Source: Candidatus Uhrbacteria bacterium RIFCSPLOWO2_01_FULL_47_17
GTDB lineage: Bacteria > Patescibacteriota > Patescibacteriia > UBA9934 > GWF2-40-263
DNA: 59,100 nucleotides
NCBI GenBank assembly: GCA_001791305.1
Contig: MGEI01000004.1
Coordinates: 1-59,100 of the forward strand
Reading direction: 5' to 3'
Of this stretch, positions 2-48,033 are shown one piece after another (within the stretch, counting starts at the first letter, position 1; every line of letters starts with the position of its first letter). The notes beneath the pieces are model-generated. The model saw only the letters and a program-made list of their open reading frames with translations. It did no database searches and was not told the origin of the DNA. A program made the translations under genes and the position numbers.

Positions 2-670
2 ATTCCGGTTGTGGTCGTCATGTTCCAACCAGACTTTGGATCCGCAGCTGTGCTTATGGGAATTTGGTTCATTCTTGCGCTGTTTGCGGGAATGCCTATG
101 CGCACACTCTTTCTTTTGTGCATTGCCGGAGTTGTTGTGTTTATGATTGCATGGTTCGGATTATTTGCGCCGTATCAAAAAGCGCGTATTGCAACGTTTC
201 TGAACCCAACCGAAGATCCACTTGGGCAAGGATACAACGTGGCGCAGGCCGTGATTGCAATTGGTGCGGGTGGCTGGTTTGGTCGTGGTCTTGGATTTGG
301 CACGCAAAGTCAATTGAAATTTTTGCCAGAAAGCCAGACAGATTTTATTTTCGCGGTGATTGCCGAGGAGCTTGGATTTTTTGGCGTCACGCTTTTGCTC
401 GGTGCGTTCTCGCTTTTGTTTCTTCGTGTCGGAAGACTCGTTCGATTGTCACGTGACAACTTCACGACGTATCTCCTCCTCGGAATTGTCGCTCTCCTCT
501 TTTTACAAATTCTCATCAACGTCGGAATGAACCTTGGAGTCTTTCCTGTCACAGGAATCGGTTTACCATTTGTGAGCTACGGAGGAAGTTCGCTTGTTGT
601 ATTTTTGTTTTACATCGGCGTCATTCAAAGCATTGCGATTCGAACCGTCCGAGTGACGTATCAAGTATAG
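2..670 (+). CDS. FtsW/RodA/SpoVE (SEDS) family protein, 5'-truncated at window edge
   Basis: ORF open from the window start. Multi-TM. Motifs GQGYNVAQAVIAIGAGGWFGRGLG and SQTDFIFAVIAEELGF are typical of SEDS proteins. TAG stop at 668-670. Confidence 0.85.
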   Translation: MPVVVVMFQPDFGSAAVLMGIWFILALFAGMPMRTLFLLCIAGVVVFMIAWFGLFAPYQKARIATFLNPTEDPLGQGYNVAQAVIAIGAGGWFGRGLGFGTQSQLKFLPESQTDFIFAVIAEELGFFGVTLLLGAFSLLFLRVGRLVRLSRDNFTTYLLLGIVALLFLQILINVGMNLGVFPVTGIGLPFVSYGGSSLVVFLFYIGVIQSIAIRTVRVTYQV

Positions 671-705
671 AAATTTGAAATGATTCGTAAACGTGATAAG
701 GTTAA

Positions 706-806
706 GTGGTAAAGTTAAAGAGTCAAAAAGTCTAGGAGTTTCTTTTTATTTTTTTGAATAAGTTTCCCTCTTCCTTCACTTTTTGACTCTTCGACTCTTT
801 GACTTT
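706..806. repeat. purine-rich 8-9-nt periodic repeat arms in inverted orientation
   Basis: AAAGAGTCAAAAAGT (717-731) pairs with ACTTTTTGACTCTT (778-791) around a T-rich centre. The right arm has tandem GACTCTT-type units. Confidence 0.55.
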
Positions 807-810
807 TCCT

Positions 811-1206
811 ATGTCCACTCCAAACAAACTTGATAAAACAACACAGGGTTTGCGTCTTGTTTCGTATTGTCCGGTTTGTGACATGCGTTCGAAATCCATG
901 AACGCGCGTACACTTGCGGCACAAGGTGAAACAAAGCTCATGCATATTCAGTGTCACAAATGCGCGAACGCCTTTTTGGCTTTTGTTCTTGTGAATCAAG
1001 TTGGAGCAAGTTCGGTGGGAATTCTCACAGATCTTGGATATGAAGACGTCATGCGTTTTCGATCAACCAAAGATGTGAGTGTGAATGATGTCATTGCCGC
1101 ACATGAGTATTTTGAGAAAGGAGCGTTTCACGTGACTGTCGAAAGGAAACGAGCAGCTCGAGTGAAAGCGCCGGTGAAACACGCAAGAAAAAAACTCGGA
1201 AAATAA
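811..1206 (+). CDS. hypothetical protein with CxxC...CxxC zinc-ribbon-like motif and basic C-terminus
   Basis: ORF track 799..1206. First ATG is at 811. CPVC and CHKC pairs are present. No family recognised. Confidence 0.45.
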   Translation: MSTPNKLDKTTQGLRLVSYCPVCDMRSKSMNARTLAAQGETKLMHIQCHKCANAFLAFVLVNQVGASSVGILTDLGYEDVMRFRSTKDVSVNDVIAAHEYFEKGAFHVTVERKRAARVKAPVKHARKKLGK

Positions 1207-37120: not shown

Positions 37121-38401
37121 ATGGAGACCACTTTTTTTACCTCAAAAAAATTTATCGTGGTTACGATTATTTGTGTGGTGCTCGTGAGTGTTTTTATTGC
37201 CTCTATTCAAATTGTTCGATCCATCCGTGCGCGCTCGACCGTGGTTGCCGTTGCGCCAACAGCCGAAGTAGTTCCGAAGACAATCGTTCCTGAATCGCCG
37301 CCACTCGCACCGGAACCGCCTCCTATCATCCACATTCCGCTTCCAGAAGAAGCACGTGGGATTTATTGGACGGCGGTGACGGCTGCAACGTCTCGAGGGG
37401 ATGTGCTTATCGATTATATGCAAAAGACAGGGCTTAATACGGTCGTGATCGATCTAAAAATGGACAATGGGCAACTTGCGTTTGTTCCGAATGACGCATC
37501 GCTTTCACCTTATGCCATGAAGAAACCCGCCATTCAGGATCTTGATGCGCTTTTGAAAAAACTCGCGGATGACAACATGTACCGCATCGCGCGCATTGCG
37601 GTGATGCGTGATAGCGCGTTTGCAAGCGTTGTGACATCGTCCGCACTTCGATCCTCCGGCGGAGGATTATGGCGCGACAAAACAGGATCCGCATGGATTG
37701 ATCCAACTTCACCAGAAGCTGTCACATATGCACTTGCGCTTGCACGGGAAGCATACGCACGCGGGTTTGATGAAGTGCAATTTGATTATGTTCGGTTTGC
37801 CTCTGACGGAAGAATCTCGGCGATTGTGTATCCACTTTATAAAACATCCGAGCTCAAGGTAGATGCCATGAAACGATTTTTTGCGGCAGTGGGTGATCCT
37901 CTTCGACAAGAAAAAATTCCCGTCTCGTTTGATTTGTTTGGACTCGTTTGTATGGGAAATGACGGACTTGGAATCGGTCAGCGCCTTTCGGACGTCATGC
38001 CTAGTACGGATTTTGTGTCTCCCATGGTTTATCCCTCCCATTACGCAAACGGCTTTCAAGGATTTCCAAATCCCGCCACACGTCCGTATGAGGTGATTAA
38101 GATTTCGCTTGATCACGCGCTCGAATTGTTGCTTCCACCAAAGATTGAAACCATGTCGATCAAAAACACGGATGGTTCGGAGACAATCTTGAAAAAAACG
38201 ATTCCTCGAACGGCAGAAGAACACGCGGCCACCGCAAAACAATTCCGTCCTTGGATTCAAGATTTTGATATCGGCGCAGTCTACACAGGCGCCATGATCG
38301 AAGCACAAATAAAAGCGGTGCGCGACGCAGGCGGATCCGGGTACCTGATTTGGAACGCACGGAATGTGTACGAGCCAGCGAAGTATGTTGAGACAAAGTG
38401 A
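37121..38401 (+). CDS. DUF4015-type putative glycoside hydrolase, membrane-anchored
   Basis: N-terminal TM. GIYWTA, NTVVIDLK.D.G and FDEVQFDYVRF blocks. Confidence 0.7.
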   Translation: METTFFTSKKFIVVTIICVVLVSVFIASIQIVRSIRARSTVVAVAPTAEVVPKTIVPESPPLAPEPPPIIHIPLPEEARGIYWTAVTAATSRGDVLIDYMQKTGLNTVVIDLKMDNGQLAFVPNDASLSPYAMKKPAIQDLDALLKKLADDNMYRIARIAVMRDSAFASVVTSSALRSSGGGLWRDKTGSAWIDPTSPEAVTYALALAREAYARGFDEVQFDYVRFASDGRISAIVYPLYKTSELKVDAMKRFFAAVGDPLRQEKIPVSFDLFGLVCMGNDGLGIGQRLSDVMPSTDFVSPMVYPSHYANGFQGFPNPATRPYEVIKISLDHALELLLPPKIETMSIKNTDGSETILKKTIPRTAEEHAATAKQFRPWIQDFDIGAVYTGAMIEAQIKAVRDAGGSGYLIWNARNVYEPAKYVETK

Positions 38402-38425
38402 AAGAGTGAAAAAGTGGAAGAGTGA
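38398..38425 (+). repeat. GTGAAAGAG-type purine-rich repeat at the DUF4015 gene stop
   Basis: GTGAAAGAGTGAAAAAGTGGAAGAGTGA. Shares AGTGGAAGAGTGA with 18796-18808. Confidence 0.6.
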
Positions 38426-38525
38426 TTGTGTGGGAAGTTATTTGTTGTGATAGAATAAAATAAAGTGCCGAAAGGATCCGAGAAACTACGTCGTGATTGA
38501 CGAGGTTTCGATCAAGAAAAAGAAT

Positions 38526-38556
38526 CAAAAATCAATCCGATGAACGGATTGATTTT
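38526..38556. terminator. bidirectional intrinsic terminator
   Basis: A5-ATCAATCCG-atgaa-CGGATTGAT-T5. Confidence 0.7.
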
Positions 38557-38583
38557 TCGGTCCCGGAACCATGACTCTCGACA

Positions 38584-38738
38584 TGGTGGACCCGACGGGA
38601 TTCGCACAACAAACGGAGCGAGAGAAAAACAAAATTCGATTTTGGTTTTCCGAGCGAGTTCAGTTGTGTTGCCTGAAAGGCAAAACCCGTAATTGTCGGT
38701 GTCAAATCGACTAAGGTTGCCATTACCTCCACAGGCCC
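38584..38738 (-). tRNA. tRNA-like gene interrupted by a 79-nt insertion in the T-loop; encoded CCA; identity uncertain
   Basis: In the minus sense:
- Acceptor GGGCCUG/CGGGUCC with G3-U70, then U8.
- D arm GAGG-UAAUGGCAA-CCUU.
- Anticodon arm GUCG(A)-UUUGACA-(C)CGAC.
- T stem ACGGG/CCCGU.
- The T-loop reads UUCGAAU only if 38605-38683 is removed.
- ACCA end, followed by a terminator. Confidence 0.5.
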
Positions 38739-38749
38739 ATATTTCCGGG

Positions 38750-38790
38750 AAAAAATAAAAGAACCCCCAGGATAAGCACAGGGAGTTCTT
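38750..38790 (-). terminator. intrinsic terminator-like hairpin 12 nt upstream of the tRNA-like gene
   Basis: Minus sense AAGAACUCCC-12 nt-GGGGGUUCUU followed by a U-rich run. The G-U pair exists only in the minus sense. Confidence 0.5.
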
Positions 38791-38885
38791 TATTGATACC
38801 GACAGGATAGTGAAGTTAATCACCTTAATCGTGTATCTATTACCTCATCAAAAAATATTTTTTTGTCAATAGTCGTTCTGTGGAT

Positions 38886-38911
38886 AAAAAAATCGAGCTT
38901 GATTGCTCGAT
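38886..38911 (-). terminator. intrinsic terminator after the small membrane-protein operon
   Basis: Minus sense AUCGAGC-aaucaa-GCUCGAU followed by U7. Abuts the stop codon at 38911-13. Confidence 0.65.
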
Positions 38912-39078
38912 CAGAGATGCGAACCCCACGAGGGATCGCTTGAGGCATTGGTGAGGTCGGAAGTCGATTTGGAATCGAGAGGCTTTGACGGTTTCTCTTT
39001 GTCGAAGGCGCCTGCGTGCATGAATTGGCAATACCAAAATCCGAAGAGGGTACCGATGACAAATCCAGCAATGAACAT
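38911..39078 (-). CDS. small hypothetical membrane protein (55 aa)
   Basis: AAGGAAG SD before the ATG at 39078. One TM (FIAGFVIGTLFGFWY). Terminator at the stop. Confidence 0.4.
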   Translation of the reverse strand: MFIAGFVIGTLFGFWYCQFMHAGAFDKEKPSKPLDSKSTSDLTNASSDPSWGSHL

Positions 39079-39104
39079 GTGTGCTTCCTTGGTGGTCGTT
39101 TGGT

Positions 39105-39458
39105 TCACAGACTCATGTCAGTGGGGCTATATCCACTCGGTTCCGGATCCGGTTCTTTGTCGCGCATGGCATTGCGTCCACTCAGCAGAAGCGTGATTCC
39201 TTGGATGATTACGATGATTGCGATTTGCGTATACATCCAAAGAGGACTCATGTGCCGATCCGCATTGGCTGCGAGGACAGGAGCAAACGGCACGATGAGA
39301 GAAACAACGAGCCCGATGAGTATGCACCACACGTTGAGAAACGTGCGTGATTCTTTGAATCGCAACAAGTGAATGACACAGCGAATGAACATGAATGGCA
39401 TCACAATTGCCATCAAAAGAACACACAAGCTCATGAACACGGTCACGACCAGTTCCAT
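39105..39458 (-). CDS. hypothetical 3-TM membrane protein
   Basis: 117-aa ORF with three hydrophobic segments. Confidence 0.5.
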   Translation of the reverse strand: MELVVTVFMSLCVLLMAIVMPFMFIRCVIHLLRFKESRTFLNVWCILIGLVVSLIVPFAPVLAANADRHMSPLWMYTQIAIIVIIQGITLLLSGRNAMRDKEPDPEPSGYSPTDMSL

Positions 39459-39567
39459 CGCTTCCCTCGCTATTTTTGAACCTATTCAAACGATATGCCG
39501 CACAGGGGTTTTTGTCAAAGTCGATCATTCCAATAAAAAATCCGAGCCTGTTGCTCGGTAAGGGGTT

Positions 39568-40068
39568 TCACACTGTGTTGTACATCCACCGTCGGAGTCG
39601 ACGGACAAAGCGTTGCCATGGTGTGAACGGCTTCGGCATCTCCCAACCGACAGGAAATGGAGTAAGACACATCGGACGGAAATCAGTCGGTTGCGTGAGC
39701 GCAATACGCTTCCTCTCAGAGGGCTTTTTTTCACCCTGCGTATCAATCGCGACTCCCGTTGAATCTGTCGGGATATTTATGATCGATGTAAATGCGTTTG
39801 TGTGATTTTGCAATTCACGTTTGGCTTCGATGATAGCAAAGACATGCACAGCGAGATCATCAGGCACATCTACTTCGCCCAAAAGGACACATTCTTCGAT
39901 GTTCGACAAAAGATTTGTTGCCGGTTCATCGTAGTTGATGAAGGTTTTGCCTTCATATGTGCTGATTGAGACGCGGGTTCCATCTCGTTCAAGGAGTAAC
40001 TCACGGCGTTTGTAGCGCGGTTCATGGATATCGAACAACACAAAACCTTCGATCACAAGCGCTTTCAT
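39568..40068 (-). CDS. hypothetical protein
   Basis: ATG at 40068 after AAGGAAAAAC. 166 aa. Basic, Trp-rich C-terminus. No family recognised. Confidence 0.45.
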   Translation of the reverse strand: MKALVIEGFVLFDIHEPRYKRRELLLERDGTRVSISTYEGKTFINYDEPATNLLSNIEECVLLGEVDVPDDLAVHVFAIIEAKRELQNHTNAFTSIINIPTDSTGVAIDTQGEKKPSERKRIALTQPTDFRPMCLTPFPVGWEMPKPFTPWQRFVRRLRRWMYNTV

Positions 40069-40136
40069 TTGTTTTTCCTTTGTGAATGTACGGGCATTTA
40101 ATCCGTTTTTTTTGATTCTGTCAATCTTCTCAAAAT

Positions 40137-47847: not shown

Positions 47848-47876
47848 TTGACATAAATCCAGCTTTCCCTTATTCT
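47848..47876 (+). promoter_or_regulatory. sigma70-like promoter for rplJ-rplL
   Basis: TTGACA-N17-TATTCT. Confidence 0.55.
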
Positions 47877-48033
47877 TTTCACAAATCCAATCGCCCAAGA
47901 CAGCAGGTGCCGCAAGGCATAAGTCCTGCCGAGGTGAAACGAGTGTCGAGTTTCGACATGTTTCATGTAGTCCTGGCGAAAAGCCCGGATTTTTTATTAA
48001 AGGTCGAAGACTCAAACATCGGATAAAAATACT
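47877..48033 (+). promoter_or_regulatory. rplJ 5' leader, probably structured (L10-leader-like)
   Basis: A ~155-nt UTR with hairpins (e.g. GCAGG..CCTGC) and a terminator-like CCTGGC-gaaaa-GCCCGG-T6 just before the start. Position is analogous to known L10 leaders. Confidence 0.35.

Follow-up and report, generated by a model that had tools for sequence, protein, structure and literature searches.

In a 59-kb stretch of the genome of Candidatus Uhrbacteria bacterium RIFCSPLOWO2_01_FULL_47_17 (the window, to whose positions all coordinates refer unless a locus is named), we analysed a tRNA-like element that is read on the minus strand at 38738-38584. We favour, with modest confidence, the reading that this element is the tRNA-like domain of a self-contained ~350-nt cassette with an antisense leader, and that the 79 nt interrupting its T loop are a lineage-specific hairpin module. 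The element appears to be one copy of a previously unrecognised family of Ala-type tRNA-like RNA genes in Uhrbacteria. The antisense leader arrangement and the T-loop insert are the unusual features of this tRNA-like RNA or non-canonical tRNA.

A sequence-only reading of the locus had described a tRNA-like gene split inside the T loop, and all the stems and loops that it named were found on the minus strand where it had placed them. The minus strand from 38738 to 38584 yields a full cloverleaf only once 38683-38605 is taken out, and the interruption falls between T-loop positions 55 and 56. The element consists of the following parts:

38684-38738, minus strand: 5' part of the tRNA-like domain, positions 1-55, with the acceptor 5' strand including G3, the D arm, the anticodon arm with loop UUUGACA, the 4-nt variable loop, the T-stem 5' strand, and U54 U55.

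38605-38683, minus strand: 79-nt insert between T-loop positions 55 and 56 (U55/C56), made up of a 5' hairpin (UUGCC/GGCAA) and a long imperfect hairpin closed by CACAAC/GUUGUG.

38584-38604, minus strand: 3' part of the tRNA-like domain, with C56-U60 of the T loop, the T-stem 3' strand, the acceptor 3' strand including U70, A73 and the encoded CCA.

The acceptor stem, GGGCCUG/CGGGUCC, includes G3·U70 and U6·G67, and U8 is present. The D arm reads GAGG-UAAUGGCAA-CCUU; alternatively it can be drawn as a 5-bp stem with an additional U-A pair, a loop AAUGGCA and a retained A14-like base. The anticodon arm, GUCGA-UUUGACA-CCGAC, has one A·C mismatch in its stem. It is followed by a variable loop of 4 nt and a T stem ACGGG/CCCGU, and the element ends with A73 and an encoded CCA.

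On the whole native window, ARAGORN at default settings called neither a tRNA nor a transfer-messenger RNA (tmRNA). Rfam at gathering scores likewise returned no tRNA (RF00005) in the window, the sole family above threshold being the ribosomal protein L10 leader, and at E ≤ 10 it returned nothing tRNA-like or intron-like between 38450 and 38850. When 38605-38683 was deleted in silico, ARAGORN called by default a 76-nt tRNA(tga) with a 4-nt variable loop, the T loop UUCGAAU and CCA. The comparison with and without the insert thus agrees with the earlier claim that the canonical T loop forms only after removal of the 79 nt. The family covariance model R1 scored 50.6 bits on the 5' part of the tRNA-like domain (38684-38738). 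The 599-nt intergenic region around the element is 100% identical across six independent assemblies, so the insert is not an assembly artefact.

In GenBank the element is covered by a 63-aa hypothetical protein (L088 5412-5603), and a minus-strand open reading frame (ORF) at 38532-38732 (66 aa, GTG start) overlaps it. These annotations would suit a small protein-coding gene, a reading to which we give next to no weight: the ORF depends on the insert and is kept in no homologous cassette, and the substitutions among homologues preserve RNA pairs rather than codons. The ORF is almost certainly spurious and owes its existence to the insert.

Folding bore out the description of the insert as self-folding (UUGCC/GGCAA, CACAAC/GUUGUG and CAAAAU-CGA-AUUUUG), and the direct repeat CUCGCUC(G/C)G reported inside it is present. 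The insert alone folds at -21.4 kcal/mol (z = -3.5), and none of 200 shuffled sequences folded equally well. An enforced cloverleaf combined with a separately folded insert reached -45.9 kcal/mol against -46.7 kcal/mol for the unconstrained minimum free energy structure. As these values differ by only 0.8 kcal/mol, the cloverleaf and the folded insert are thermodynamically compatible.

We then compared the element with its relatives. The family set comprised five members (the window copy, L086, L093a, L093b and L097) from four genomes. L086 was found by a metagenome pattern scan in which the D loop, the anticodon loop and G1-G3 were the sole constraints, and L093a, L093b and L097 were found by synteny, upstream of Dus, with no sequence constraint on these three. 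The hosts of the relatives are Uhrbacteria or other Patescibacteria, and pairwise identity among the five members is 64-85%. L086 is a 73-nt uninterrupted homologue that also lies upstream of a Dus gene, and it scored 43.3 bits with RF00005; L093a scored 40.2 bits and L097 48.5 bits. L093b had no RF00005 row and gave a sub-threshold tmRNA match instead, and L094 gave a local match to RF00023 at 26 bits against a gathering score of 47. The skipping-rope RNA (RF02924) matched the relatives only, at 27.9 and 26.3 bits against a threshold of 36.7, coextensively with the tRNA match. Rfam 15 holds no family for the cassette; besides tRNA on the intact relatives it gave only the sub-threshold skipping-rope and tmRNA matches. 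The literature searched yielded no description of this family, and a 2024 review of mismatched-identity tRNAs names no such family (PMC11415595).

All five members share a 7-bp acceptor stem with G1-C72, G2-C71 and G3·U70, together with U8 and A73. They also share a D arm GAGG-(U/C)AAUGG..AA-CCUC, a 4-nt variable loop, a T arm GCGGG/CCCGC and an anticodon loop of the form N-UUG-R-Y-A (UUUGACA, CUUGACA or GUUGGUA). Across the five cloverleaves 96% of cells were paired, compared with 33-55% in slid controls, and 9 of the 21 pairs showed compensatory changes. The pairing on which the sequence-only reading had staked its cloverleaf is therefore kept in relatives, as far as five sequences can tell. 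The T stem of the window copy carries a compensatory pair of its own, A49-U65. G3·U70, to which that reading had drawn attention, is invariant in 5/5 although acceptor pairs 4-7 all covary; it is a real and selected feature. In L093a (L093 2827-2903, minus strand) we observed a D loop UAAUCGAUAA together with a T loop UUUGAGU, where the other members have GG and C56. This change may be a compensation of the tertiary 19-56 pair (G-C to A-U), in which case the elbow would be under selection in the intact members.

Further searches did not enlarge the family. With a covariance model trained on the five sequences, no other member turned up in ~0.6 Mb of fetched CPR (Candidate Phyla Radiation) loci, and BLAST, nhmmer and the family model found no copy on 80 DUF4015-anchored genome loci. 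Scans of IMG/VR by 5', loop, leader and family patterns found nothing, and the scan with the 3' end returned only unrelated permuted tmRNAs and odd tRNA-like genes. INPHARED phages queried with two cassettes gave no match. Further Dus relatives (L095, L100-L106) held no more members, just a decayed remnant in L095 and an ordinary tRNA-Gln. Pattern matches in L085 and L025 were rejected as chance.

Alanyl-tRNA synthetase (AlaRS) reads the acceptor stem and not the anticodon. Its identity set, G3·U70 plus A73, is present in 5/5 members, which makes alanylation the natural inference, and the element would accordingly be a candidate for charging with alanine. G3:U70 is sufficient for AlaRS (PMC11415595). 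The likeness to tRNA-Ala and to AlaRS minihelix substrates extends to G1-C72 and G2-C71, invariant like G3·U70 and A73 in 5/5. In contrast to tRNA-Ala, the family lacks an alanine anticodon and its anticodon loop is abnormal.

The abnormality of this loop, already suspected, was borne out by the relatives. Position 37 is C or U in 5/5 members, where canonical tRNA has a purine; the 31-39 pair is mismatched in 3/5; and three members have the "anticodon" UGA where two have UGG, with the body otherwise conserved. Bacterial tRNA-Ser is a type II tRNA that requires a long variable arm. The variable loop is 4 nt in 5/5 members and the long arm is missing, so the element is not a bacterial tRNA-Ser, as the sequence-only reading had argued. 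We considered in this light whether the element might be an ordinary decoder that has suffered an insertion, namely a tRNA-Ser(UGA) or an Ala-charged mistranslating tRNA reading UCN. ARAGORN does label it tRNA-Ser(tga), G3·U70 would make it an AlaRS substrate, and mismatched-identity tRNAs exist in bacteria (PMC11415595), those named in the review being tRNAProX and Sec/Cys hybrids and not this family. Against this stand the missing long arm, the pyrimidine at 37, the frequent 31-39 mismatch, an "anticodon" that varies between UGA and UGG, the covariation of positions 36 and 37 with the leader (below), and the accessory, patchy occurrence of the loci. For the window element we hold a decoding role to be highly improbable, and for the family as a whole ordinary decoding looks unlikely, with a loop that appears to co-evolve with the leader.

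Compared with canonical class I tRNA (RF00005), the family has the same 7/4/5/5-bp stems, U8, G18G19, a T arm GCGGG-UUCGAUU-CCCGC and A73-CCA. The window copy differs in that its T loop is not a contiguous 7-nt loop and in that it goes undetected unless the 79 nt are removed. The family as a whole differs by the pyrimidine at 37, an additional base before A14, the frequent 31-39 mismatch and the leader-covarying "anticodon".

The tRNA-like domain is the core of a conserved cassette of ~350 nt with a promoter box, a leader, a leader-trailer helix and a terminator. The elements of the window cassette outside the tRNA-like domain are listed below in the direction of transcription:

38864-38883, minus strand: promoter region, with a CCACAG box at 38883-38878, an 8-nt spacer and a TTGACA -35-like hexamer at 38869-38864.

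38821-38834, minus strand: leader segment S1, ACACGAUUAAGGUG, antisense to positions 21-34 (D-stem 3' strand, A26 and anticodon-stem 5' strand).

38809-38824, minus strand: leader hairpin P1, GGUGA-UUAACU-UCACU, formed when the leader folds; a hairpin occupies the equivalent place in 5/5 leaders.

38792-38805, minus strand: leader segment S2, CUGUCGGUAUCAAU, just upstream of P2 and antisense to positions 33-46 (anticodon loop, anticodon-stem 3' strand and start of the variable loop).

38751-38791, minus strand: leader hairpin P2 and U tract, AAAGAACUCCC, a 12-nt loop and GGGGGUUCUUU; leader fold z = -3.0.

38743-38750, minus strand: 5' strand of the leader-trailer helix P3, UCCCGGAA, an inverted repeat that stops a few nt before G1.

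38561-38568, minus strand: 3' strand of P3, UUCCGGGA, the other half of the inverted repeat.

38527-38557, minus strand: intrinsic terminator, a 13-bp stem followed by a U run.

In the family promoter, 8-12 nt separate the box, (T)TTTTCCACAG(A/G), from a downstream TTGACA or TTGATA. The pattern CCACAG-N(4-16)-TTGAYA occurs once in the window, at 38883-38864. The same box precedes L093a, L093b and L097; in the fetched loci the pattern was found at the cassettes and as chance matches, and in L086 the CCACAG box lies ~55 nt upstream of the aligned TTGACA. The P2 stem and U tract are kept in 5/5 cassettes, with an A-rich 5' flank, while the apical loop ranges from 12 nt in the window to ~77 nt in L093b and L097. 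Judged by its predicted structure, P2 looks like a terminator or attenuator. A P3-type helix of 6-10 bp, ending 2-3 nt before G1, was found in 5/5 cassettes with a different sequence each time: UCCCGGAA/UUCCGGGA in the window, CGUCGGU/ACCGACG in L086, GUCGGCU/AGCCGAC in L093b, CGUGAUUGGU/ACCAAUUACG in L093a and UUUCGG/CCGAAA in L097. By this comparison the leader-trailer helix covaries. A terminator follows all 5 cassettes; the one in the window is symmetrical and may also serve the DUF4015 gene on the plus strand.

The two antisense segments of the leader were then aligned across the five cassettes. For S1, 87% of cells were paired compared with 24-48% in slid controls, and 7 of the 14 pairs showed compensatory changes, those specific to the window being AAGG/CCUU and CGAU/GUCG. 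S2 formed 12-14 contiguous pairs per member, with 90% of cells paired compared with 27-44% in slid controls. Compensatory changes were seen in 5 of its 14 pairs and included loop positions 36 and 37 (UGUCAA/UUGACA and UACCAA/UUGGUA). Several of the pairs in S1 and S2 are G·U, which shows that the complementarity operates at the RNA level and is strand-specific. Ordinary CPR tRNAs in the fetched loci showed no comparable leader complementarity at the anticodon arm. The covariation of the loop with an antisense leader segment accounts for the odd anticodon loop. We also tried to read the GGUG motif of the leader as an anti-CCA sequence (T-box-like UGGN), and set this aside because the motif is better accommodated by the covarying pairing of S1 with positions 21-34.

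The cassette can be compared with a T-box riboswitch. In both, a transcribed leader pairs with a tRNA anticodon beside a terminator-like hairpin, and S2 of the cassette has a codon-like UCA or CCA, after which an A faces U33. In contrast to a T-box, the pairing in the cassette is 12-14 bp long and invades the anticodon stem, a second antisense segment addresses the D/anticodon junction, and the downstream "gene" is the tRNA-like RNA itself instead of a synthetase or transporter. RF00230 (T-box) gave no match, either at E ≤ 10 over the window region or at E ≤ 1 on L097/L094.

Taken with the anatomy of the cassette, these pairings suggest the following scheme. The primary transcript could switch between a leader-bound form, in which the leader holds the D/anticodon core in an alternative pairing, and the cloverleaf. 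Once the leader is removed the cloverleaf would be set free, and RNase P would be the natural candidate for this cut, as the leader-trailer helix ends just before G1. Alternatively or additionally, the mature RNA might bind S1 and S2 on nascent leaders, just upstream of P2, and so feed back on its own synthesis. The leader may thus act as a cis pro-sequence or as a feedback attenuator, by analogy with a T-box that reads its own product.

Several points weigh against this reading of the cassette. The family has only five members, the loops of two of which were fixed by the search pattern, and S1 and S2 were aligned by hand in those five sequences. The S1 and S2 targets are adjacent, with no linker between them, and both cannot pair fully in a simple stacked pseudoknot; the two segments may act in sequence or as alternatives instead of jointly. 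In the window copy, one A·C mismatch interrupts the middle of S2 and another the anticodon stem. The cassettes are also dispensable, being decayed in L095 and absent from L100, L101 and the orthologous loci. Finally, the insertion at 55/56 destroys the T-loop/D-loop elbow, so the window copy could be dead. The elbow is used by RNase P, EF-Tu and the ribosome.

The insert itself has counterparts in the family. The T loop is uninterrupted in 4/4 intact homologues and the insert occurs only in the window copy; on this comparison the insert is lineage-specific. L093b and L097 each carry a self-folding P2-loop insert of 77 nt; together with the window insert these have z scores of -3.5 to -6.3. The core of the window insert, CGGAAAACCAAAATCGAATTTTGTTTTT, is identical at 22 of 28 positions to CGAAAAAACAAATTTGAATTTTATTCTT of the L097 P2-loop insert. 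The alignment of the two inserts scored 32, against 15.7 ± 3.2 for shuffled sequences, none of 500 of which reached it, and 13 of 3000 natural 77-mers of the same GC content scored at least as high. The first hairpin of the insert, UGCCUUUCAGGCAAC, resembles the P2 loop of L093a, UGCCUUUUUUAAGGCAAC (1 of 500 shuffles). The likeness to the P2-loop inserts falls in AU-rich sequence and its significance is moderate, a further point against the favoured reading. Since the P2 loop of the window is short and the relatives carry ~77-nt hairpins in theirs, the insert seems to be the same sort of apical hairpin module, here placed in the T loop.

The insert does not look like a known mobile repeat. The 79-mer recurs neither elsewhere in the window nor in the ~1 Mb of loci that were fetched, and no target-site duplication or terminal inverted repeats were found at the insert junctions. 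It therefore lacks the multiple copies, terminal repeats and duplications of miniature inverted-repeat or repetitive extragenic palindromic elements, and shows only the partial likeness to the P2-loop inserts of relatives. Base pairing between the insert and the leader, trailer or tRNA halves was no higher than in shuffled controls. The att-site scar suggested by the sequence-only reading does not hold, as both halves are complete, the 3' fragment is not duplicated and the island contains no integrase. An integrase target or a DNA-level inverted repeat for a recombinase was rejected for the same completeness of the halves and lack of an integrase, and because the G·U pairs make the complementarity RNA- and strand-specific. 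The further suggestion of a single disrupted ordinary tRNA proved too narrow: intact relatives at other loci carry the same non-canonical features.

As to the fate of the insert, we rank its retention as an expansion module first, followed by a recently inactivated copy, excision in the manner of an rRNA intervening sequence (IVS), and true splicing. According to the reading we favour, the insert landed between T-loop positions 55 and 56 and is most likely retained in the RNA, as an expansion that does away with the canonical elbow. With the insert retained, the acceptor helix, the antisense pairings and the leader-trailer helix would stay intact. The insert might perhaps be clipped by a double-strand RNase to give a two-piece molecule, and true splicing would be the least likely outcome.

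We judge it rather unlikely, though worth serious attention, that the window holds a dead copy, a recent pseudogene in an accessory island made when a palindromic or mobile hairpin inserted into the T loop. The uninterrupted T loop in 4/4 relatives and the structurally critical position 55/56 would fit such an event, as would the ~77-nt hairpins in other loops of the relatives, which a promiscuous element might leave, and the lack of a splicing signature. Cassettes are moreover seen to decay or are missing (absent from L100, L101, L107 and L108). In L095 (3113-3175, minus strand) we found a decayed cassette in which a TTTTTGCACAG box remnant is fused to the 3' half of a P2-loop insert and to GGGGGTTGTTTTGT; nothing is left of the promoter, S1, S2 or the tRNA-like domain, and 40 nt of the L097 insert survive. 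Set against a dead copy, everything else in the window cassette is intact, and lineage-specific compensatory pairs occur in its T stem (A49-U65), in S1 (AAGG/CCUU and CGAU/GUCG) and in P3 (UCCCGGAA/UUCCGGGA), which argues that selection acted on the cassette in this lineage. Both halves of the T loop are exact, six assemblies carry the same fixed sequence, and the insert has neither the second copy nor the duplications and inverted repeats expected of a mobile hairpin in the sequences searched.

A different outcome would be IVS-type excision without religation, by RNase III or a similar enzyme, giving an RNA in two pieces joined through pairing in the 7-bp acceptor stem and the 5-bp T stem. 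In place of the apical loop stands an extended imperfect hairpin of ~24 bp, an anatomy that, by its fold, resembles an rRNA-type IVS, and the acceptor and T stems are fully paired. The rRNA genes of CPR bacteria are known to contain insertions that the mature rRNA lacks. With bacterial rRNA IVSs and CPR rRNA insertions the window insert shares a lineage-specific extended hairpin that replaces the apical loop of a conserved helix in a CPR genome; it differs in that the host molecule is tRNA-like. The additional 5' hairpin UUGCC/GGCAA outside the long hairpin speaks against this outcome, and we know of no precedent for IVS-type excision in tRNAs or tRNA-like RNAs. We regard it as improbable.

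True splicing, with the 79 nt excised and the exons ligated to a 76-nt RNA across the junction GGGUU|CGAAUCCC, is very doubtful. In its favour, removal gives an exact 7-nt T loop and a default ARAGORN call, and the insert folds as a separate domain. However, the relatives have no insert at 55/56, and neither a group I or II signature nor a convincing bulge-helix-bulge (BHB) motif was found. Rfam at E ≤ 10 returned no group I, group II or other intron family over 38450-38850, and 79 nt is too short for a ribozyme core. A bacterial tRNA group I intron was rejected on the length, the T-loop site and the missing Intron_gpI match, as an anticodon-loop position and a core of >200 nt would be expected. 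The BHB search over many trial registers gave only a weak arrangement, in which the outer helix is A-U, the central helix includes two G·U pairs and an inner helix is missing. The BHB and group I possibilities raised for the locus thus fell away on register enumeration and Rfam. The insert resembles archaeal BHB introns of the T loop in being a T-loop intervening sequence whose removal restores a tRNA, and differs from them in its bacterial host, the lack of a convincing BHB and a site that is not conserved in relatives.

Two other kinds of RNA invite comparison. The tRNA-like domain of tmRNA shares with the element a G3·U70 acceptor, A73-CCA and the T arm, and the 18-nt 3' end of the window element is identical to that of permuted tmRNAs in IMG/VR contigs; the element differs by its full D and anticodon arms and by having no tag reading frame or pseudoknots. 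In the IMG/VR viral contigs L081 (4686-5071) and L084 (2036-2416) we observed permuted two-piece tmRNAs with the 3' end CGAATCCCGTCGGGTCCA of the window element, adjoined by tRNA-Gln and tRNA-Met. L082 (1102-1196, minus strand) and L083 (1833-1904, minus strand) are genes on high-GC viral contigs that ARAGORN reports as 'tRNA-???', with abnormal anticodon loops and a 3' acceptor strand identical to that of the window element; a 5' strand starting GGGCC would give them G3·U70. Non-proteinogenic tRNAs of the staphylococcal tRNA-Gly type are used in cell-wall synthesis. The element shares with them the idea alone of a tRNA that can be aminoacylated, whose decoding and elbow features are degraded and which is kept away from translation; the cassette has no linked Fem/MurM-type gene.

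Should the family prove real and expressed, it would be a new kind of bacterial tRNA mimic in which the alanine pair is strictly selected and the "anticodon" drifts with an antisense leader. This would point to an aminoacyl-tRNA-like RNA outside ordinary decoding, or to a regulatory RNA on a tRNA scaffold, in the CPR, a lineage whose RNA biology is largely unexplored. The window copy is a natural experiment in which the tip of the T loop has gained a 79-nt hairpin and all else is maintained, and it would test which parts of the tRNA fold the function needs. The locus is also a concrete place to ask whether CPR bacteria process small-RNA insertions as is thought for their rRNA. Practically, it is annotated as a hypothetical protein in GenBank, and tRNA finders mislabel its intact relatives tRNA-Ser or tRNA-Pro. 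A bolder proposal combines two novelties: a new class of self-monitoring tRNA-like riboregulator, an Ala-accepting mimic that is read by its own leader and whose free or uncharged product governs leader-terminator read-through or maturation, and the first bacterial T-loop tRNA-type intervening sequence that is neither group I nor BHB, processed to a split or religated molecule. We consider this combination a long shot.

The large neighbouring genes, metK, cyclophilin, DUF4015 and an RNase_H_2-domain protein, are all on the plus strand. The cassette lies among them in a distinct segment:

38402-40130: lineage-specific island of 1.7 kb, comprising the cassette and two minus-strand ORFs, ORF117 (39105-39458, membrane-like) and ORF166 (39568-40068).

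In the closest relatives, within ~20 nt of DUF4015, there follows directly an orf162 homologue (69% aa identity in L001 and 79% in L107) or a PemK-like gene (L108), without the element, which marks 38402-40130 as a lineage-specific island. The orthologous site in L001, L107 and L108 carries no tRNA at all, and the family model gave no match on these three loci; an intact tRNA there would, by the sequence-only reading, have marked the window copy as a disrupted pseudogene. ORF117 and ORF166 matched no Pfam or PHROG family, ORF166 had no homologue among 5.8 billion proteins, and the island ORFs are not shared with L086.

At the spot directly upstream of Dus that the cassette occupies in L086, L093 and L097, L100 has a tyrosine integrase (135-947, plus strand), L095 has HTH/Abi_alpha/PIN_12 genes and L102 has HTH/Gp49 genes; the spot behaves as an integration or variable hot spot. 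In a related Uhrbacterium (L108/L109 12494-12859, plus strand), the genes for the two exonuclease VII subunits are separated by a member of the '23S rRNA intervening sequence protein' family (PF05635). In the window, a 17-nt inverted repeat (82% complementary) connects 38696-38712 in the anticodon-arm region with 38962-38978 in the 3' region of ORF117, 250 nt apart, and is probably a chance match. The L10 leader mentioned above lies at 47876-48004 on the plus strand (RF00557, 51.8 bits). Three tandem 8-nt units (GTGAAAGA-like) were observed at 38392-38423 on the plus strand, at the end of the DUF4015 gene and just beyond it.

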